Assembly: GCA_049512795.1 (NCBI GenBank)
Contig: JBEKWT010000001.1
Coordinates: 892 to 64,891 of the forward strand
Origin: Terracidiphilus sp.
Lineage (GTDB): Bacteria > Acidobacteriota > Terriglobia > Terriglobales > Acidobacteriaceae
Direction: 5' to 3'
Length of the DNA: 64,000 bases
A program made the position numbers and the translations under genes. The number at the start of each line of letters is the position of its first letter. Positions within the stretch are counted from its first letter, which is position 1. The notes beneath the pieces are model-generated. The model had not been told where the DNA came from, did no database searches, and saw only the letters and a list, made by a program, of their open reading frames with translations. Shown here one piece after another: positions 3,277 to 57,063 of this stretch.

Positions 3277-3369
<93 letters not shown>

Positions 3370-3811
3370 TATACCCTTCCAGCCATGTCCAGACGCTTCC
3401 AGCCAAGGCCAAACAAATAGGATAAAGCGAATAAAATAAGCGGCTTACGTTCCAGCCGATTGGGTGGGCCGCTTGCCTGCGCCACAGAAATGATGGTGGG
3501 CGCCCGCACACAATTGTGCTTTGACGGGCAAAGTGAAAGCCCCGCAACCATAGAATCATCGCCTTGTTGCTCCGCTGCGCCGGATAAATGAAAGTGCGAG
3601 ACCGCATTTATTGAAAGTCTTGCCTCCGATTTATGGTTTCGATGAACTTCGGATGCTTTAGCCCCAAGACTGCGAGTTGCTGCCGAAGTGCCAGGTTTTC
3701 GATGAGGAGACCTCGGCGTGAGCGAAGGAAATGAAAGGAGGAAGTAATTAGGAGGTCTAAAAGGCGAAGCATGACGCCAGTTTTACATCTGATAAAGCCA
3801 AATTGGAACTC

Positions 3812-41784: not shown

Positions 41785-41808
41785 GTTCGAATCCCCCTCT
41801 CTCCGCCA
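41785..41808 (+). repeat. att site: duplicate of the tRNA-Ser 3' end
   Basis: 24/24 identity to 3346-3369. Confidence 0.95.
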
Positions 41809-41846
41809 GCTACTTATTCTATTGATTTTAAGAGCTTTAAGTTCTG

Positions 41847-41868
41847 TGTTACTAGAAATCTGTTACTA
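41847..41868. repeat. Paired direct repeat (putative integrase arm-type sites)
   Basis: TGTTACTA-gaaatc-TGTTACTA in AT-rich DNA between the att repeat and the integrase remnant. Confidence 0.5.
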
Positions 41869-41920
41869 ATTTCGCCTCAATCGCTGATTTCTCGGTTTCC
41901 CTACACCGGAGACGAGAAAG

Positions 41921-42363
41921 ATGGCGAACCGCACTGCCGCACTCTACATTCGCACAAAGACCGGCTACAAAAAGCATGGCAAGCGTCTCAGCGACCTACC
42001 TGAAGGCGAAGCCTACCAACTGTTCTGGTACGTGGGCTCCCGCAAGAAGGCTAAGGCTGTGGGTCGATTTGCGGATGGTGCTCAAGCTGCCTCATCGACA
42101 AAGAGGCTGAACTTCGTCGTGCGGCCATCATGGGCACAGCACCTGAAGCGGTCTCAGCCAAGAGCCGCAGTTTTGAATTCTCCGTCCAGCAGTACCTGAA
42201 TGAAGTCGAAGCCGGAAAGTCCCGCAAGACCCACGATCCGTACAGCGTTATGGCCCATTTGTACTACCTGAGAATGGCCCTCACAGCAAACAATCGGCCA
42301 CCCATCAAGGCTGCGAATCTTCCCCCAAACTATGCCTTGCGCGGCGCAGACCATCGCATGTAG
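41921..42363 (+). pseudogene. Tyrosine integrase N-terminal remnant (frameshifted, truncated)
   Basis: MANRTAALYIR...YQLFWYVGSRKKAKAVG...AQAA, then a frameshift near 42090 into LIDKEAEL...VQQYLNEVEAGKSRKTHDPY. No catalytic domain. Lies directly beside att. Confidence 0.6.
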
Positions 42364-51691: not shown

Positions 51692-54600
51692 TCATTCATT
51701 TGAAGAAGTGACGCCAACGGTTGCACCCAACGGTCCCTTGGGAATATCGACGCTCAGTTGCTTGCCGTTGCGGAGGATTACCAACGTCCTCGAATGATCC
51801 GGCCCCGATGTAAACCGCTCCCACAATTCCTTCATCGAGCTGATCCCGTCATTCTCCAGAAGGACATCTCCGACATGTAACTGAGCCTTCATGGCAATGC
51901 CGTTGTCATCGAGCCACGATAAGGCGATGACAGATTTCTTCGGGCCCGACCGGAGAAATGTGCGCGAAGCGTCAGCGAGAATGCAATCGGCTTTGGACAA
52001 GTCACCGTTTCCTTTGCTGATATCGCATGGCTTTTCAAGCGTCCGGCGAAGAATCAAGACGCCAAACCGGTCAAAGAAGTCTCTTTGTATCTCGTTTCCC
52101 GCACTATCCTCCGTGATTTTTACATTTGCGAACCCGCCGGCCATTTCAATCGGCTTGCCGTCTTCATCAAAGGCTGCCATCTGTGTGATTTTCTCGTTGG
52201 CGTCCCGAACGTAGGTCAACACGGCAGCGCCCAGAGTGTTTTTCGACGTCATCGGGCGATCATTCACATCGAAGCAGGCCCGTTTGAGCATTTGGCCTTT
52301 GGCATCCAGATCGTCGCGCATGATCGCGCACCCGTCTTTCGCGAGAATCGGTTCCCCGTCTGTGCCGAAATAACTCGTGACGAGTTGCTTGCCTTGATCG
52401 CTTCGTTCGTAGCGCACCATGGCATACGTGTCTCCCTTCGCAACCGCGCGCTTGCCCTGGGCATCGTAGTAGGACTCTTCAGTCTCGTTTCCTTGTACAT
52501 CGTATTGATCAATCTCCTTGTTCCCCAACACATCGATCCTGGTGACCTGGATTCTATGTCCGGCGGTGTCGTACTCTACCTCCCCCAGGTGGGGTAAGTT
52601 ACCGGATCCCTTTACCGGGCTGTTGACGCCAAAGTATTCCATTCTCGTCATTTGGCGCTTGTCGCTCCATGCGTATTCGCTTCGGGCAATGCCATTCTTA
52701 TCGGCCTTGAGCTTGCCGTCCTTGCCGCGGTTGGTTTCCTCGGTTTCGAGACCACGGTTGTCATACACGCCATCAACGCAGGAAATGCCATCCGCATCGA
52801 CTGCCGGAGTACGATCGGCGTGCAGATAACAGGTTGTCAGAGCATCGCCGAATGCGTCGTAGGTGACGTCGCTAATCTCATAGGGGAACAAGGCCGCTGA
52901 TGTTACGGTGTAGCGGGTTTCTGTTGTGTTTCCCCATCGGTCGAAGCTTAACTGAGATTGGGAATATCCGAGAGATTTGGGAGGATTGCCTGAAACGTCG
53001 TAGTAATTCCATTGGTCCCTGCGGCCGCTTGCGTCGTAGTGAATCTTTACCAAGTGATATCCGTCACTAATGTTGACAGGCTTGGAATCGATTCCGAAAT
53101 AGGATTCATCCAGTATTTCCCCGTTGGCGGTATTGGTTCGCCGCAGGATGTGGACACCGGAGCTGTCGTTAGCCGGCTGCCCCTTGTCATCAAACATGCT
53201 GATTTCAGATATATTGCCGTTCGCATCGTATGCCAGACGAAGGTCGTATGCTCCGCGGTCGCCCTTTGTCGGTTTCCCGGCACTATTGAAAAATGTTTCG
53301 CGCGTAAGCCGGTCCTGGGCGTCGTACTCGTAGACAACCCGTTGATAACTGGGATCTCCCAGCTTGTCCATCGGGTTGCCGTAGTTATCAAAATAGGTTA
53401 GCTCTATGTTGTTTCCGTGGTCATCGTACTTGGCACGGATGATATGCCAGCCGTCCTCCTGGCTGACGATCGGAGAACCGTCCACGTCGAAATATGCTAC
53501 CTCCGTCTGGTTTCCCCACTGGTCGTAGCTGTAGCGAGCAGAGGAGTACTCGGGGCTGTAGGGAGGATTGAAGTACCTGGAGGAGATCACCAAAGTGGGA
53601 CGGCCCATGGCGTCGGTAGCCTTGGCAAGTATGCGATTGTCGTCCTTGTCGTATTCAAGCTCCTCAGTGGCGTTGCCAGACCCGTCGTTCATCGGTTTTC
53701 CGCTCGCATCGAGCGACGTCTCACTGGTTTCCCGGCCCTGGCTGTCGAATACAAACGCCGTACCGTAGGCGCTATTTGGCCCTGGAACCGGCTGGGCATC
53801 CCATGACAGGTAGCGCAGAGTCTCGTGACCATTGGCGCCATGCTGGATCTGGATAATCTCGGCTTCGCTTCCAGGCCGCTCCGGCTTGGGGAGTCCGTCG
53901 GGGCCGAAGTAAGTGGCATTCATCGTCTGCTGCGAGTTGCCCTGCGCCTGCGACGGGAGATACACGAAACCCCAGACCATGTTGTGATTCTGGTCCCATG
54001 CGGTCTCATATACCGTCTTTCCGTTCGTGTCCTTGTCATATTGAAACTCCATGCGGCAAAACCTGCTGCCTGGGTCCTGGTCGCTGGAGGGCTTGTCAGA
54101 ATTGAGAAGAGTCGACAGGCCATTCTGCATGGTGGGCTTCCCATTTCTATCGACTGCTTCCAGGCTAAGGATCTCGCCGCGAAATCCCTTGCGGGTCACA
54201 CTGTATGAAACTTTGCGGTGATGCACCGTTTGGATATTGATCTTCCCGTATGGGACGATCGTTCCAAGTTCATTCGAGAAATTCCGGTAATAGGCGCTGG
54301 TAGGGTGGATATAGGCCAGCCAGTAATACACGGAGTATGCCACTCCAGCCAAAGCCAATACCGCTGTAGCCGCCGCAACTGCCGTGCGCCGGCGAGCTCG
54401 CGCCAATGCGCGCCGCAGCTCTTGCTGTTTGCGTTCTTCCTCCTCGCGTGCGACGCGGGCGGCGCGAAATCCCCTGCTCTTTTTGACCACGCCGGTCAAC
54501 AGGTCGTGGGACAGCTCGACATGGCGCGTTCCGAGGCGATCTTCGAAGCGCAGCAACCGCCTATCCACCAGGGTTTCCAGCTCGAGCGGACTGACACCCT

Positions 54601-55675
54601 CGGCAAGGGCTTCTGAAAGAGGAAGCGTGCCGCGGAATCCCGACGCAGTGAGCAGGCGATCTTCCACGAACAAGCGCACGGGTTCCGCCAGACCCTCGAA
54701 GCTGCGCTCATACATGGCCTCCAGAATCTCGCCTCGTTCTTTGGCCACCAACTCGCTGGTAATCGTCTCGTGGCCTAATTCGACCATGCGAAGGAACAGC
54801 TCGTGGCACATCACGCTCAGATAAGCGGGTTCTATCTCGGCTTGCGCGATGGCATCTTGTGCGGCGCCGGTCTCTCCAGCCAATGCCGCGACGATGTCCT
54901 GCGCTACCGCTTCACTTACCCAAGGCTTGCCGGAGTTCACGATGACCTCGAGAGCGCGCGTTCCATCGAGAGGTAGCAGTCCCATTCGGTTGCGCATAAT
55001 GGCCGGCAAAATTGGACGCAGTTGATCGAGCCTGGAGACAAAGTCCTCGCGCAGGGATAGCACGATCTTGTACGTTGGGGCGCCAGCGTCGACTGCGACC
55101 CGCTCAGTGGACTGCGTTACCCGCTGCTCGACGACGAGGGGAACGCGATTCTCGGCCAGGTCCGCCAGTTGCCCGAGAAAGTCCGATGCCTGTCTTTGGT
55201 CCTTCCCGATGGTGAACGCCTCCTCAAACTGATCGAAGACCAGGAGTGGCGTTACGCGATCGTTGCGCGGACCCCAAAAATCGGTTTCGTGAAAGAATTC
55301 CCAAAGCGTAGGCGTGGAACCTTCGCTTATGCGGCTCTCAACATCGAATCCGCCTTTCTGAGCCGTCGCGAGGGTGATCGCCTTTACCTGTTCCACGGGG
55401 TCCACATCGGGATCGGCAAAGTTAAGCCTCAGCAAAACCGGGAAATACATGCCGGAACGCAGGCGAGGAAAGACCCCGGCGTGCAGCAATGACGACTTAC
55501 CCGAGCCGGATCGGCCGAACAGCACAGTCAGTGTGTCTCTTTGGATAAGACGCAGGATTTCCTCGATCTCCAATTCCCTACCGAAGAACAGCTCATGCTG
55601 CTGCTCCGTATAAGGCGCCAGCCCCGGCCACGGATTCTGGGGCGCAGCCGACATCGCGGTGATATCGGTGCTCAT
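51692..55675 (-). CDS. nSTAND1-type NTPase - coiled coil - TM helix - ~20 YD-like repeats - PDZ-like domain
   Basis: NPWPGL..Y...FFGRE, Walker A GRSGSGKSS, Walker B LLVFDQFEE, SLREDF, ELSHDLL; TM AVAAATAVLALAGVAYSVYYWLAYI; repeats YDxxGNxxExxYFDxxGxP; AMKAQLHVGDVLL...LVILRNGK. Confidence 0.85.
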   Translation of the reverse strand: MSTDITAMSAAPQNPWPGLAPYTEQQHELFFGRELEIEEILRLIQRDTLTVLFGRSGSGKSSLLHAGVFPRLRSGMYFPVLLRLNFADPDVDPVEQVKAITLATAQKGGFDVESRISEGSTPTLWEFFHETDFWGPRNDRVTPLLVFDQFEEAFTIGKDQRQASDFLGQLADLAENRVPLVVEQRVTQSTERVAVDAGAPTYKIVLSLREDFVSRLDQLRPILPAIMRNRMGLLPLDGTRALEVIVNSGKPWVSEAVAQDIVAALAGETGAAQDAIAQAEIEPAYLSVMCHELFLRMVELGHETITSELVAKERGEILEAMYERSFEGLAEPVRLFVEDRLLTASGFRGTLPLSEALAEGVSPLELETLVDRRLLRFEDRLGTRHVELSHDLLTGVVKKSRGFRAARVAREEEERKQQELRRALARARRRTAVAAATAVLALAGVAYSVYYWLAYIHPTSAYYRNFSNELGTIVPYGKINIQTVHHRKVSYSVTRKGFRGEILSLEAVDRNGKPTMQNGLSTLLNSDKPSSDQDPGSRFCRMEFQYDKDTNGKTVYETAWDQNHNMVWGFVYLPSQAQGNSQQTMNATYFGPDGLPKPERPGSEAEIIQIQHGANGHETLRYLSWDAQPVPGPNSAYGTAFVFDSQGRETSETSLDASGKPMNDGSGNATEELEYDKDDNRILAKATDAMGRPTLVISSRYFNPPYSPEYSSARYSYDQWGNQTEVAYFDVDGSPIVSQEDGWHIIRAKYDDHGNNIELTYFDNYGNPMDKLGDPSYQRVVYEYDAQDRLTRETFFNSAGKPTKGDRGAYDLRLAYDANGNISEISMFDDKGQPANDSSGVHILRRTNTANGEILDESYFGIDSKPVNISDGYHLVKIHYDASGRRDQWNYYDVSGNPPKSLGYSQSQLSFDRWGNTTETRYTVTSAALFPYEISDVTYDAFGDALTTCYLHADRTPAVDADGISCVDGVYDNRGLETEETNRGKDGKLKADKNGIARSEYAWSDKRQMTRMEYFGVNSPVKGSGNLPHLGEVEYDTAGHRIQVTRIDVLGNKEIDQYDVQGNETEESYYDAQGKRAVAKGDTYAMVRYERSDQGKQLVTSYFGTDGEPILAKDGCAIMRDDLDAKGQMLKRACFDVNDRPMTSKNTLGAAVLTYVRDANEKITQMAAFDEDGKPIEMAGGFANVKITEDSAGNEIQRDFFDRFGVLILRRTLEKPCDISKGNGDLSKADCILADASRTFLRSGPKKSVIALSWLDDNGIAMKAQLHVGDVLLENDGISSMKELWERFTSGPDHSRTLVILRNGKQLSVDIPKGPLGATVGVTSSNE

Positions 55676-57063
55676 TTTGCCCTCCGGTATTTGCGAATTC
55701 CGTTGACAATAAGATTGATAAATTCCGGCGGCAACCGCCCGTCACGAAGCCGTGTCCAGTGGAGGTCTCTATAGGGCGAATCGACAAAGCGGGAGCCTGA
55801 TGGCGTATCGTCAATGACGATTGGCTGCAGAAAGGCGTCCTCTTTGTGCCGTTCCAGAGCGGCATCTTCAGCCCATTTCCATTCCTTGAACAGATAGCCT
55901 CCCCGGGCCCTTTGAGGCAGGTTCAGAGATCGAGAGATGATGGCGAGGAAATACGCCGCGCTCCGAATATTCTCGCGGATGCTCTGCTCGAACTCGTCTC
56001 CCGGCTGAAGAGCCCGCTCATCCATCCATGTGTCGATATTGGCGTCCTCGAGCTGCGCCCGAATCTCCCTTACCCGCGCGCGATCCTCGCTGGCATAACT
56101 AAGGAACACGGCGCCAGATTTGAAGTCTGCCTGTAGCTCGGGCGCGGGGCGCAGAGCCACATCCCGATTGGCGCTTCGTTCGCGGCACAGCCGATGCAAT
56201 TTCGCGACGAAATCGACAGGCGACTCTGTCGTTATTACCTTGGCCCGGCGCCGCATGAGGAAATCGGCCAACCCGGCCTCGCAGTTTGGGCTCACATAAT
56301 AGATGTTGATCGTTTCTTCATGCCTGCGGCCATTCAGAGCGTGGATAAAGAACCGCGCAAGCCAGTCAGGGAAGCTGCACCCGAGCAGAAGAACGGTCTT
56401 TCTTTGCAAATAGTCATAAAGATTTTCCGGCGCATACTGCTGATCCAGCAACGACCAGCTGAATTCAATCAAATCGTCTTCGGTCTTGGCGAAGGTGTCA
56501 CTCACCGCGCTGCTGGCGCCAAACAAGTGATACAACACGGGAAGAGAAGTGGGGCCGAAGTTGGGTGGCAGATCGATCCGGTCCTTGGCTCCACGCGGCG
56601 TGAAGACGATGTTTTCAATTTCCTGATTGGGTCCGCGCGCGTCTTGCAAGGCCTTCTCGAAAAGATGGTCGATTGTGGTCGTGACATAAAGAGAAAAGCT
56701 CTGGATTTCCGCCAATTTCCGCAACACATCGGGAACCGGCCAGGGGTTGCGCCTCATCACATCGTCGATGTCAAACGCCAGGTCGCCGGAATTCTGTTTG
56801 AGGCTCAACAGATTAGCGACATCGTAAAGAGCATGATGAGCACGGTCGGCGGGAAAAGCAATTCCTGCCTGCTCCGCAAGCTTTCTTCCGCAAGCTGAGT
56901 AAAGCGACTGTTCCTTGCCATCCTCCTGCCAAGTCAGTAGCTCCGGGCCGATCACCGGAACCACGCAGCGCTCCAGGACGAGATTGGTGAGCTTATCCCA
57001 TTCCCGATCGGTCATGGGAAATGAACCTGATACTCCGGGCGATGGGACCGGGGCTCCAGCCAT
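55672..57063 (-). CDS. SIR2-like domain + C-terminal TIR domain protein
   Basis: SIR2-like VVPVIGPEL, YVTTTID, LYHLFG, LLLGCSFPDW; TIR VFLSYASED, TWMD, PGDEF...I, FKEW, LQPIVID. 4-bp overlap with the downstream gene. Confidence 0.85.
   Translation of the reverse strand: MAGAPVPSPGVSGSFPMTDREWDKLTNLVLERCVVPVIGPELLTWQEDGKEQSLYSACGRKLAEQAGIAFPADRAHHALYDVANLLSLKQNSGDLAFDIDDVMRRNPWPVPDVLRKLAEIQSFSLYVTTTIDHLFEKALQDARGPNQEIENIVFTPRGAKDRIDLPPNFGPTSLPVLYHLFGASSAVSDTFAKTEDDLIEFSWSLLDQQYAPENLYDYLQRKTVLLLGCSFPDWLARFFIHALNGRRHEETINIYYVSPNCEAGLADFLMRRRAKVITTESPVDFVAKLHRLCRERSANRDVALRPAPELQADFKSGAVFLSYASEDRARVREIRAQLEDANIDTWMDERALQPGDEFEQSIRENIRSAAYFLAIISRSLNLPQRARGGYLFKEWKWAEDAALERHKEDAFLQPIVIDDTPSGSRFVDSPYRDLHWTRLRDGRLPPEFINLIVNGIRKYRRAK

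Follow-up and report, generated by a model that had tools for sequence, protein, structure and literature searches.

Two overlapping genes in the window (the whole stretch of 64,000 nucleotides of Terracidiphilus sp. DNA that was analysed) are predicted from their sequences to represent a widespread variant of bacterial immunity in which threats would be sensed outside the cytoplasm. Gene 1 joins a sirtuin-fold domain deprived of catalytic motifs to a TIR domain, and gene 2 is an nSTAND1 protein with a predicted membrane helix and an exchangeable C-terminal sensor. We give about an even chance to the following reading: gene 2 would be a periplasm-sensing STAND switch which recruits the predicted TIR NADase of gene 1 through a dead-sirtuin adaptor, an envelope signal thereby leading to NAD+ cleavage and to growth arrest or cell death. 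In the literature that we examined, characterised STAND immune receptors sense inside the cytoplasm, and according to a 2024 survey (PMC11350192) the bacterial TIR systems it covered apparently lack the transmembrane and LRR features known from Toll-like receptors. The pair is a compact two-gene test case for periplasmic sensing of invaders, with natural sensor swaps usable as chimeras; if the reading is true, a sirtuin effector was turned into an adaptor, in a bacterial parallel to SAMD9.

The gene pair and its locus

Table 1. Features of the gene pair (positions in the window)
Feature	Position	Strand	Details
Gene 1: pseudo-SIR2 + TIR protein	55672..57063	-	463 aa; ORF call, Pfam
Gene 1, possible alternative start	57015		Met17, giving 447 aa as in several homologues
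Sirtuin-fold domain without catalytic motifs	56170..57015	-	Pfam SIR2_2, fold matches, motif mapping
TIR domain	55684..56121	-	Pfam TIR_2
ATGA stop/start overlap, gene 1/gene 2	55672..55675	-	4 bp
Gene 2: nSTAND1-coiled coil-TM-cap-YD-like repeats-PDZ	51692..55675	-	1327 aa
nSTAND1 NTPase module, no N-terminal effector	54446..55675	-	Walker A 55516-55493; Walker B 55246-55220
Helical, charged linker carrying a basic patch, followed by one predicted TM helix	54317..54463	-	TM helix at residues 431-453
Beta-rich juxtamembrane cap (predicted ectodomain)	53867..54310	-	
19 YD/RHS-like beta-hairpin repeats	52028..53866	-	residues 604-1216
C-terminal PDZ domain, RseP/GRASP type	51707..52006	-	

The ATGA overlap announced by the original prediction was found (Table 1); it is identical in 46 of 70 genome loci and likely couples the translation of the two genes. 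An att site and an integrase remnant had also been placed upstream. The att repeat is real, the 3' end of tRNA-Ser (3346-3374) recurring at 41785-41813, but the integrase-like remnant (41921-42199) had no match in a Pfam profile search and lies about 9.5 kb off. In one relative (L003) the pair directly adjoins the tRNA-Ser region, so its placement within an att-bounded island is not supported. In acidobacterial loci the pair sits among housekeeping and sugar-use genes. A search for a sigma-70 promoter gave no match. Coverage of the stretch by RNA runs is thin and as even as that of the contigs; the runs may contain DNA and say nothing either way on expression.

Clear defence neighbours occur in only 3-5 of 42 loci, a raw count without background obtained by scanning 203 of 348 neighbour representatives, and we found no relatives in viral contigs; both results count against a role in defence. 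There was also no effector gene recurring as a constant third partner across the loci (no SLOG, no Macro). As had been anticipated, no PADLOC system matched the pair as a whole; neither did any NCBIfam entry, nor did any Avs model match.

Gene 1: a sirtuin fold without catalytic motifs

Gene 1 is a SIR2-like and TIR protein as predicted (Pfam SIR2_2, E 7e-11; TIR_2, E 3e-19), and the sirtuin fold is borne out by KomC (Z 18.4, rmsd 4.0 Å, 247 aligned) and Avs5 (Z 16.7), with ThsA as the top Foldseek match. Because a search of the PDB with a SIR2-only profile gave no sirtuin, four SIR2_2 proteins that bear the motifs served to locate the catalytic positions. GAGxS is replaced by GPELL, TTNxD by TTTID (Thr130 standing for the Asn) and HG by FG (Phe181); among 148 relatives the Asn occurs in 4 and the His in none. 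The active antiphage sirtuins ThsA, DSR2 and Avs5 have GAGxS, TTNxD and HG or NG (PMC12931631, PMC7272460), whereas gene 1 lacks all three. The fold itself is kept, together with the invariant surface motifs LGCxFPDWL, Asp132 and Gly182. Judged by these motifs the domain is a pseudo-enzyme, and therefore the TIR alone can be the NAD-processing effector.

Glu394 of the TIR (codon 55884-55882) lies in helix 390-403, the helix after strand C, and is invariant in 56/56 in one comparison and in 129/129 full-length relatives in another; from its position and from general knowledge of TIR domains, we take it to be the catalytic residue. The best matches among solved sequences are TIR-APAZ and AbTIR-type proteins, which deplete NAD. 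The TIR of gene 1 is a predicted NADase. The original prediction had pointed to TIR and SIR2 domains as NAD+-cleaving effectors in Thoeris, Avs and DSR systems; in gene 1 such a role could fall to the TIR with its invariant Glu, but not to the SIR2-like domain, which has lost the catalytic motifs.

Gene 2: a STAND switch predicted to cross the membrane

The nSTAND1 assignment (PF20703) is firm: Pfam E 2e-35, 123 bits against a curated cut-off of 27.1, over profile positions 1-223 of 379. The module begins at residue 15 with no domain ahead of it, and a self-search found no domain common to the two proteins. Walker A (GRSGSGKS, residues 54-61) and Walker B (LLVFDQFEE) are intact, the Lys of the former and the D, Q, E and E of DQFEE being conserved in 56/56; His390 of the STAND is conserved too, and no solved relative of this STAND was found by sequence. 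The coiled coil was confirmed, and a single TM helix is predicted here as well. Hydropathy displays one hydrophobic segment (431-449, Kyte-Doolittle 1.84; next best 0.84), preceded by RRALARARRR. A TM helix follows the STAND in 117 of 122 loci (a redundant set), and in 111 of these 117 the N side is richer in Lys/Arg; the near-identical loci L045 and L143 have no TM at all. A sensor across the membrane, as originally proposed, is thus predicted in an N-in/C-out topology from hydropathy and charge only.

Some 20 repeats of about 32 aa had been announced, and we counted 19, of 23-42 aa and mostly of 32-33 (RHS_repeat, E 9e-5). Against Rhs toxins and teneurins, Foldseek E values go down to 1e-26 with global TM-scores of 0.1-0.3; matches in the ESM Atlas are all below 0.9 and give RHS-like leads only. 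A check against a closed beta-cage gave a local hairpin match only (rmsd 17.7 Å over 382 residues), on a predicted model which cannot settle the curvature. We rejected the reading of gene 2 as an Rhs toxin: the DPxG motif of the Rhs core is absent from the repeats, there is no toxin tip, and the C-terminus is a PDZ. The latter reaches only E 0.018 in Pfam, with PDZ_6 matches in homologues, but its AF2 model (pLDDT 89.7) upholds the predicted PDZ-like end, matching the GRASP65 PDZ (Z 9.1, rmsd 2.3 Å, 82 aligned) as well as the PDZ2 of RseP/MucP. The tail contains three close cysteine pairs.

Compared with close relatives the repeats are mosaic, and the ectodomain diverges faster (dN/dS 0.15-0.38) than the STAND and SIR2 parts (0.08-0.16), with no repeat segment above 1. 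Among 104 homologues, the same repeats stand behind a TIR in 25, a kinase in 21 and an nSTAND1 in 34, a TM helix separating head and repeats in 18/25 TIR cases and 21/21 kinase cases; four homologues begin with a signal-like hydrophobic segment. The same ectodomain is also found on cyclase-headed membrane proteins.

Conservation and exchange of parts

The pair is intact in 70/70 genome loci and in 67/68 metagenome loci that had space for it, and a search starting from the STAND found a SIR2-like gene upstream in 5/5 other genomes. The trees of the two proteins have 39 of 61 splits in common (distance r 0.95), which reflects co-inheritance and is not proof of co-evolution. The expected conservation of the pair with swapped sensors was confirmed: the C-terminal types are YD, WD40, TPR, LRR, BspA-LRR, WG, FGE, 7TM+YCF48+PDZ and a weak LytR_C, and a TPR-tailed locus (L086) nests within the clade of gene 2 itself (support 100). 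On the side of the SIR2-like domain, the effector is replaced by a kinase in P0246, a bDLD3 insert is found in P0281, and a CHAT stands ahead of an nSTAND1-TM gene in L187. Fusions are known from one record each, TIR-nSTAND1-TM-YD (P0201) and nSTAND1-pseudoSIR2-TIR (P0334); a word-index search had found no longer fusions, and the full HMM search which found P0334 made us reject the statement that the genes are never fused. The family is large: clustered at 50% identity and taken up to E 1e-30, it forms 966 groups. Its presence is patchy (16/60 genomes of the genus, 0/40 other relatives, 6/401 in the phylum), and the cassette moves between sites.

Proposed mechanism and alternatives

In the reading we prefer, the mechanism would build on the obligate coupling of the genes, the intact Walker motifs, the lost sirtuin motifs, the invariant TIR Glu and the exchanged tail. 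With the predicted N-in/C-out topology, the repeats would form a long beta-hairpin sheet outside, and the PDZ could bind the C-terminus of a peptide. By analogy with STAND and TIR biology, a ligand may cluster the receptor and cause nucleotide exchange and oligomerisation of the STAND, and the pseudo-sirtuin adaptor would bring the TIR domains into the assembly needed for NAD+ cleavage. The weakest step concerns the ligand and the outcome: the former would be a foreign or damage-derived periplasmic protein (such as a phage ejection or tail protein, an effector of a competitor or predator, or a misfolded envelope protein), and the latter an abortive defence. Complex prediction for the receptor/adaptor pair went in the expected direction, gene 1 with gene 2 scoring 0.37 against 0.00 for the best control, but this is weak support: of 157 solved pairs 116 attained the score mark, as did 2 of 215 mismatched ones, yet with values of 0.60 or less it was attained by just 18 solved pairs along with the two mismatches. 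The runs share 88% or more of their contacts, and the partner pLDDT is at least 80. A tentative extension, which we consider less likely than not, is a true bacterial Toll-like pathway, in which a single-pass NLR-type receptor with an exchangeable, recombining ectodomain would detect a protein of an invader in the periplasm and use the dead sirtuin as a plug-in adaptor analogous to MyD88; in this possible scheme the adaptor could carry TIR, kinase or caspase outputs, and the single-chain TIR-TM-YD protein would be a short-circuit form.

The same wiring could serve envelope-stress or community signalling, a limited TIR activity setting dormancy or a regulatory signal, with the PDZ and repeats sensing misfolded or foreign envelope proteins. 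We hold this rather unlikely, although the ectodomain shared with Ser/Thr kinase and cyclase proteins fits ordinary signalling and counts against a role in defence, the neighbourhoods are mostly non-defence, and the PDZ is of the stress-sensing type of RseP/MucP/DegS; the patchy presence, the mobility of the cassette, the swapped and mosaic sensors, and partners of the TIR, CHAT and bDLD3 kinds, as are usual in conflict systems, speak against it. It is distinctly unlikely, in our estimate, that the TIR makes a messenger of the cyclic-ADPR type instead of draining NAD+, and that the pseudo-sirtuin, in place of docking, binds a ligand or inhibits its own protein as a gate, or else scaffolds a filament. 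Bacterial TIRs do often produce signals, as stated in the accessible part of a preprint (10.64898/2025.12.03.692087). Moreover, the sirtuin fold persists with its invariant motifs, and the closest folds (ThsA, KomC, Avs5 and FAM118B) were solved as filaments. Yet all three NAD-contacting motifs are gone, no constant third effector gene accompanies the pair, and the nearest solved TIRs belong to NAD-depleting types.

We consider it very unlikely that the hydrophobic helix is only a tether and the repeats cytoplasmic, in which case the pair would detect phage proteins inside the cell, like an Avs that is split and anchored in the membrane. The helix is Ala-rich and of modest hydropathy, sensors of the WD40 and TPR types usually lie in the cytoplasm, and variants without TM occur; against this stand the positive-inside bias, tail domains of envelope type (PDZ, YCF48, BspA-LRR, WG, weak LytR_C), the three cysteine pairs, and the finding of the repeats in receptor kinases, where they follow the TM, as well as in proteins whose N-termini are signal-like.

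Comparison with known systems

The original prediction knew of no characterised system with this layout. We indeed found none characterised experimentally, but the source data of Kaur 2021 (PMC8195603) already record, as predictions, a separate TIR gene ahead of nSTAND1+TM; the pseudo-sirtuin partner is the part for which we found no precedent in the literature. No paper describing a pseudo-SIR2-TIR and nSTAND1-TM pair was found, although large supplements (PMC13581612, PMC8195603) and subscription papers could list one. The nSTAND1 counter-invader systems of that article, which are predicted only, resemble our pair in the nSTAND1 clade (PF20703), the variable C-terminal sensor and the effector on a neighbouring gene; its section 7 treats FGS sensors and paired EAD adaptors and does not cover membrane receptors. 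In the source data of its Figure 2, "nSTAND1+TM" occurs 461 times; some rows read "TIR+DrHyd -> nSTAND1+TM" and a single one "TIR+DrHyd+TIR -> nSTAND1+TM+Ntox24+PDZ" (WP_015724204.1, 1380 aa, "YD repeat-containing"); of 8 mentions of SIR2 there, none is a SIR2+TIR gene ahead of nSTAND1. In L191, the only locus of this TIR+DrHyd+TIR receptor layout that was inspected, the partner is TIR-first without a match to the pseudo-sirtuin profile, so that equating the label with a partner of the gene 1 type is not supported in this single comparable locus. The counter-invader systems share an EAD between the N-terminus of the NTPase and the effector gene, a feature that our pair lacks.

The logic on the receptor side, a TIR partner and an NTPase-TM-periplasmic sensor, was also predicted before with ParA (PCTM, or receptor-like TIR-ParA; bioRxiv 10.64898/2026.10.19.760177), and the layout is less new than first thought. 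As far as the accessible portion of that preprint goes, a gene for an active TIR, to which a further, inactive domain is joined, lies upstream of an NTPase-TM protein with a variable periplasmic sensor (LytR-C and TPR included), and detection of envelope breach is proposed. By prediction our pair has the same arrangement, an upstream effector gene and a type II single-pass NTPase with a variable outer sensor; PCTM differs by its ParA-type NTPase, by an inactive module which is a TIR and not a sirtuin, and is predicted only. DdvA-DdvS of Myxococcus (PMC11506125, seen in part) likewise has a single-pass membrane protein whose periplasmic repeat domain controls antiphage defence, but it is an anti-sigma factor acting through transcription, without NTPase or TIR. 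The YD-like hairpins of Rhs toxins and teneurins are here anchored in the membrane behind a STAND.

Avs/AVAST systems, especially the SIR2-STAND Avs5 (PMC12931631) and the Avs7-21 of a survey (PMC13581612), share the STAND, the repeat sensor and the NAD-targeting output, and in Avs5 a SIR2 fold adjoins the STAND as in our pair; in them, however, one cytoplasmic chain bears everything, an active effector at its N-terminus included, whereas our pair has its effector in trans and a TM ahead of the sensor. Thoeris also has a SIR2 fold and a TIR in one locus, but there the SIR2 of ThsA is the active NADase, combined with a SLOG sensor, and the signalling TIR (ThsB) stands alone; in our pair a dead SIR2 is fused to the TIR and the partner is a STAND receptor. 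A precedent for the adaptor is SAMD9/SAMD9L: in the available part of the source (PMC13600222), a non-catalytic SIR2-like domain of prokaryotic type, judged unlikely to bind NAD, is packed on a STAND module, and the SIR2-like domain of gene 1 matches SAMD9 in structure (Z 11.4). SAMD9/SAMD9L is a eukaryotic, cytosolic single chain with a tRNase effector, whereas the pair described here is bacterial and carries a TIR.

The gene pair and its domains

The original prediction had described two genes overlapping by 4 bp, and they were found as two open reading frames sharing ATGA (see the table). The SIR2-like and TIR domains claimed for gene 1 were both recovered, as was the nSTAND1 domain of gene 2 with intact Walker A (GRSGSGKS) and Walker B (LLVFDQFEE) motifs. 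Where about 20 repeats and a PDZ-like end had been announced, the AF2 model of the gene 2 ectodomain, i.e. the part beyond the predicted TM helix (residues 456-1327, pLDDT 89.7), displays a beta cap, 19 hairpin repeats and a PDZ domain, the latter resembling GRASP65 (Z 9.1, rmsd 2.3 A, 82 aligned) and PDZ2 of RseP/MucP in structure comparison. The repeats are locally like Rhs/teneurin hairpins, but their global fold differs (TM-score 0.1-0.3) and the DPxG core of Rhs is absent from them.

Features of the window discussed in the text
Feature	Coordinates	Strand	Description
Gene 1	57063-55672	minus	ORF, 463 aa; Pfam SIR2_2 + TIR_2
Gene 2	55675-51692	minus	ORF, 1327 aa; Pfam nSTAND1 + weak RHS repeat match
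tRNA-Ser 3' end	3277-3374 (duplicated part 3346-3374)		
Duplicate of the tRNA-Ser 3' end, with integrase-like frame	41785-42199		duplicate at 41785-41813, 38 kb from the other copy; then a broken integrase-like frame

Gene 2 has a single hydrophobic segment (residues 431-449) with a basic patch just before it. Such a segment follows the STAND domain in 117 of 122 loci (a redundant set), its N side being richer in Lys/Arg in 111 of the 117 (means 5.4 versus 2.0); among the five loci without a call, three have visible sub-threshold helices and two, near-identical, truly have none. TM assignments rest on hydropathy and not on a trained predictor. Of the claim that the effector is a separate protein and the sensor lies across the membrane, the separate TIR gene is supported and the topology stands as a hydropathy-based prediction.

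Conservation of the pair and exchange of the sensor

Gene 1 and gene 2 form a unit. A gene 1 alignment used to scan GTDB genomes gave 70 loci (Acidobacteriota, Pseudomonadota, Bacteroidota, Verrucomicrobiota, Desulfobacterota and others), the closest named relatives being Terracidiphilus and Acidobacteriaceae MAGs; a STAND gene, sometimes frameshifted or cut by a contig end, lies immediately downstream in all 70, with the identical 4-bp overlap in 46. In 80 metagenome loci it is downstream in 67, room is missing in 12 and it is absent in one. Searching from the STAND gene in 401 genomes of the phylum added five other genomes, each with a SIR2-like gene upstream. In one of these, locus L188 (3127-8847) has two SIR2-only genes, of which the fully read one retains TTNYD, then an nSTAND1-TM-WD40 gene; it may be an active or ancestral form. 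The trees of the two genes have 39 of 61 splits in common (64 hand-picked pairs). The SIR2-like domain profile matches 966 clusters at E up to 1e-30.

The pair is conserved with differing tails, a check that the original prediction had named, and the sensor is exchangeable. Tails beyond the TM helix comprise YD-like repeats, WD40, TPR, LRR, BspA-LRR, WG repeats, FGE, 7TM+YCF48+PDZ, WD40+ankyrin+Sel1 and short ones with weak LytR_C matches; locus L086 has a TPR tail, yet it falls inside the clade of the gene 2 protein. In six loci of the same genus (L151, L152, L156-L159) we noticed a third subfamily, STAND followed by 5-8 TM helices and mostly also by a YCF48-like propeller and PDZ.

Compared with nine close relatives, dN/dS is 0.15-0.38 in the repeats versus 0.08-0.16 in STAND and SIR2, and exceeds 1 in no segment. 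The sensor is a mosaic: residues 601-800 of the repeats have a dS of 0.01 to L005, versus 0.37 for STAND, and the PDZ domain has a dS of 0.03 to L001, versus 0.40 in the repeats of residues 601-800.

The ectodomain is also shared with other receptors. Its 104 homologues carry nSTAND1 in 34 cases, TIR without STAND in 25, a kinase in 21, and a cyclase, trypsin or AAA_35 in one each (precomputed Pfam, 31 rescanned). A TM helix precedes the repeats in 21/21 kinases and 18/25 TIR proteins, and four homologues start with a signal-like segment. The records P0150, P0156, P0171, P0175, P0181, P0186, P0207 and P0226 are single-chain TIR-TM-YD repeat proteins, some PDZ-ended, a bacterial Toll-like receptor layout; P0169, P0176, P0177, P0184 and P0190 are fusions with 10-24 TM helices ahead of these repeats.

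A degenerate sirtuin domain and a TIR domain

The gene 1 model (pLDDT 83.4) matches ThsA, KomC, DSR2 and Avs5, whose fold is like that of its SIR2-like domain. According to the portions consulted of PMC12931631 and PMC7272460, active antiphage sirtuins require GAGxS, TTNxD and HG or NG, whereas gene 1 reads GPELL, TTTID and FG (alignment with four motif-bearing SIR2_2 proteins). Among 148 relatives (two of 150 omitted for length), four have Asn at the Asn position and all have Phe, Leu or Met at the His position; the TIR glutamate, Glu394, is retained in 129/129 full-length relatives. Judging from these motifs, the sirtuin domain is dead and the TIR domain looks alive; of the two NAD+-cleaving effectors originally proposed, only the TIR is kept.

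Other companions of the SIR2-like domain are a kinase, a bDLD3 insert, CHAT and, in one fusion, nSTAND1 itself. At L187 (3700-8644) a CHAT + SIR2-like gene overlaps an nSTAND1-TM gene, apparently a caspase-output version of the module. Another genome of this genus has, at L165 (1186-2034), a stand-alone SIR2-like gene directly ahead of nifH; its motifs are degenerate and it matches the pseudo-sirtuin family profile weakly (E 9e-20).

The predicted complex of gene 1 with its gene 2 partner scored 0.37 versus 0.00 for the best control; at least 88% of contacts agreed between runs, partner pLDDT was at least 80, and no interface was given. This prediction weakly supports an interaction. Scores of 0.60 or lower were obtained for only 18 of the 157 solved complexes, and also for both mismatched pairs that passed.

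Genomic context

The module is patchy, occurring in 16 of 60 genomes of the genus and in 0 of 40 other relatives. Homology to the window is confined to the gene pair at L005, L006, L008, L077 and L078, and only the right-hand flank is common to L002-L004; at L003 the pair adjoins the tRNA-Ser region, some 48 kb between tRNA and pair being missing. The att site of the original prediction is present as a duplication; the gene pair is not supported as its cargo.

An M48 peptidase gene repeatedly adjoins the pair (L027, L029, L065 and L067, in Pseudomonadota and Bacteroidota), with a zinc ribbon in both scanned ones. Downstream of the pair at L029 (11169-14943), one gene is weakly SLATT-like and another encodes TIR-PDZ.

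Proposed mechanism

Gene coupling, motifs and swaps are observed; topology and binding are predicted. In the most likely reading, to which we give even chances, a ligand, presumably periplasmic, would cluster the receptor, the clustered receptor would let STAND oligomerise, the pseudo-sirtuin would dock the TIR through the predicted binding, and the docked TIR would then cleave NAD+, putatively in defence. What chiefly speaks against a classic antiphage role is the scarcity of defence neighbours. Of the 348 neighbour representatives at 42 loci, 203 were run through PADLOC (ORFs picked mechanically, counts without background control). Clear defence genes lie at three loci, namely L033 (type I RM and Septu), L069 (type I RM) and L024 (CARF), and L058 and L032 have possible ones; the remaining matches were generic kinases and ATPases. 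Signalling of envelope stress would be the foremost alternative, although we consider it unlikely. Still less probable is a TIR which makes a messenger and is gated by the pseudo-sirtuin, and a sensor located in the cytoplasm, against the predicted topology, seems the least credible.

Comparison with known systems

The original prediction knew of no characterised system with this layout, and the literature searched gave none; nor did it give an instance of the pseudo-SIR2-TIR partner. The receptor layout is on record: Kaur 2021 (PMC8195603), which named nSTAND1, has 461 nSTAND1+TM occurrences in its Figure 2 source data, where some rows have a separate TIR+DrHyd gene upstream and one reads 'TIR+DrHyd+TIR -> nSTAND1+TM+Ntox24+PDZ'. 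At L191 (29-5640), a locus of this receptor layout, a TIR-first partner gene and an nSTAND1-TM-YD-PDZ gene share 4 bp; as this partner has no match to the pseudo-sirtuin profile, two partner families serve such receptors. The consulted portions of Kaur 2020, Toshchakov 2020 and TIR surveys contain no such pair, and those of Lee 2026 (PMC13581612) do not discuss membrane STANDs; in the parts consulted, Kibby 2022 (10.1101/2022.07.19.500537) and Dore 2023 (10.1101/2023.09.22.558884) speak of STANDs that have a TM helix and may sense in the periplasm. The same receptor logic is predicted in the portion seen of a 2026 preprint (10.64898/2026.10.19.760177), with ParA where the present module has STAND. 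We concluded that the module is real and widespread, a variant of predicted nSTAND1 conflict systems whose function is itself putative. Receptors with a separate TIR gene were already predicted in the source data of PMC8195603; the pseudo-SIR2-TIR partner seems new against the literature searched, and the contribution of this locus is the YD-PDZ sensor, which is mosaic and occurs on TIR and kinase receptors too.
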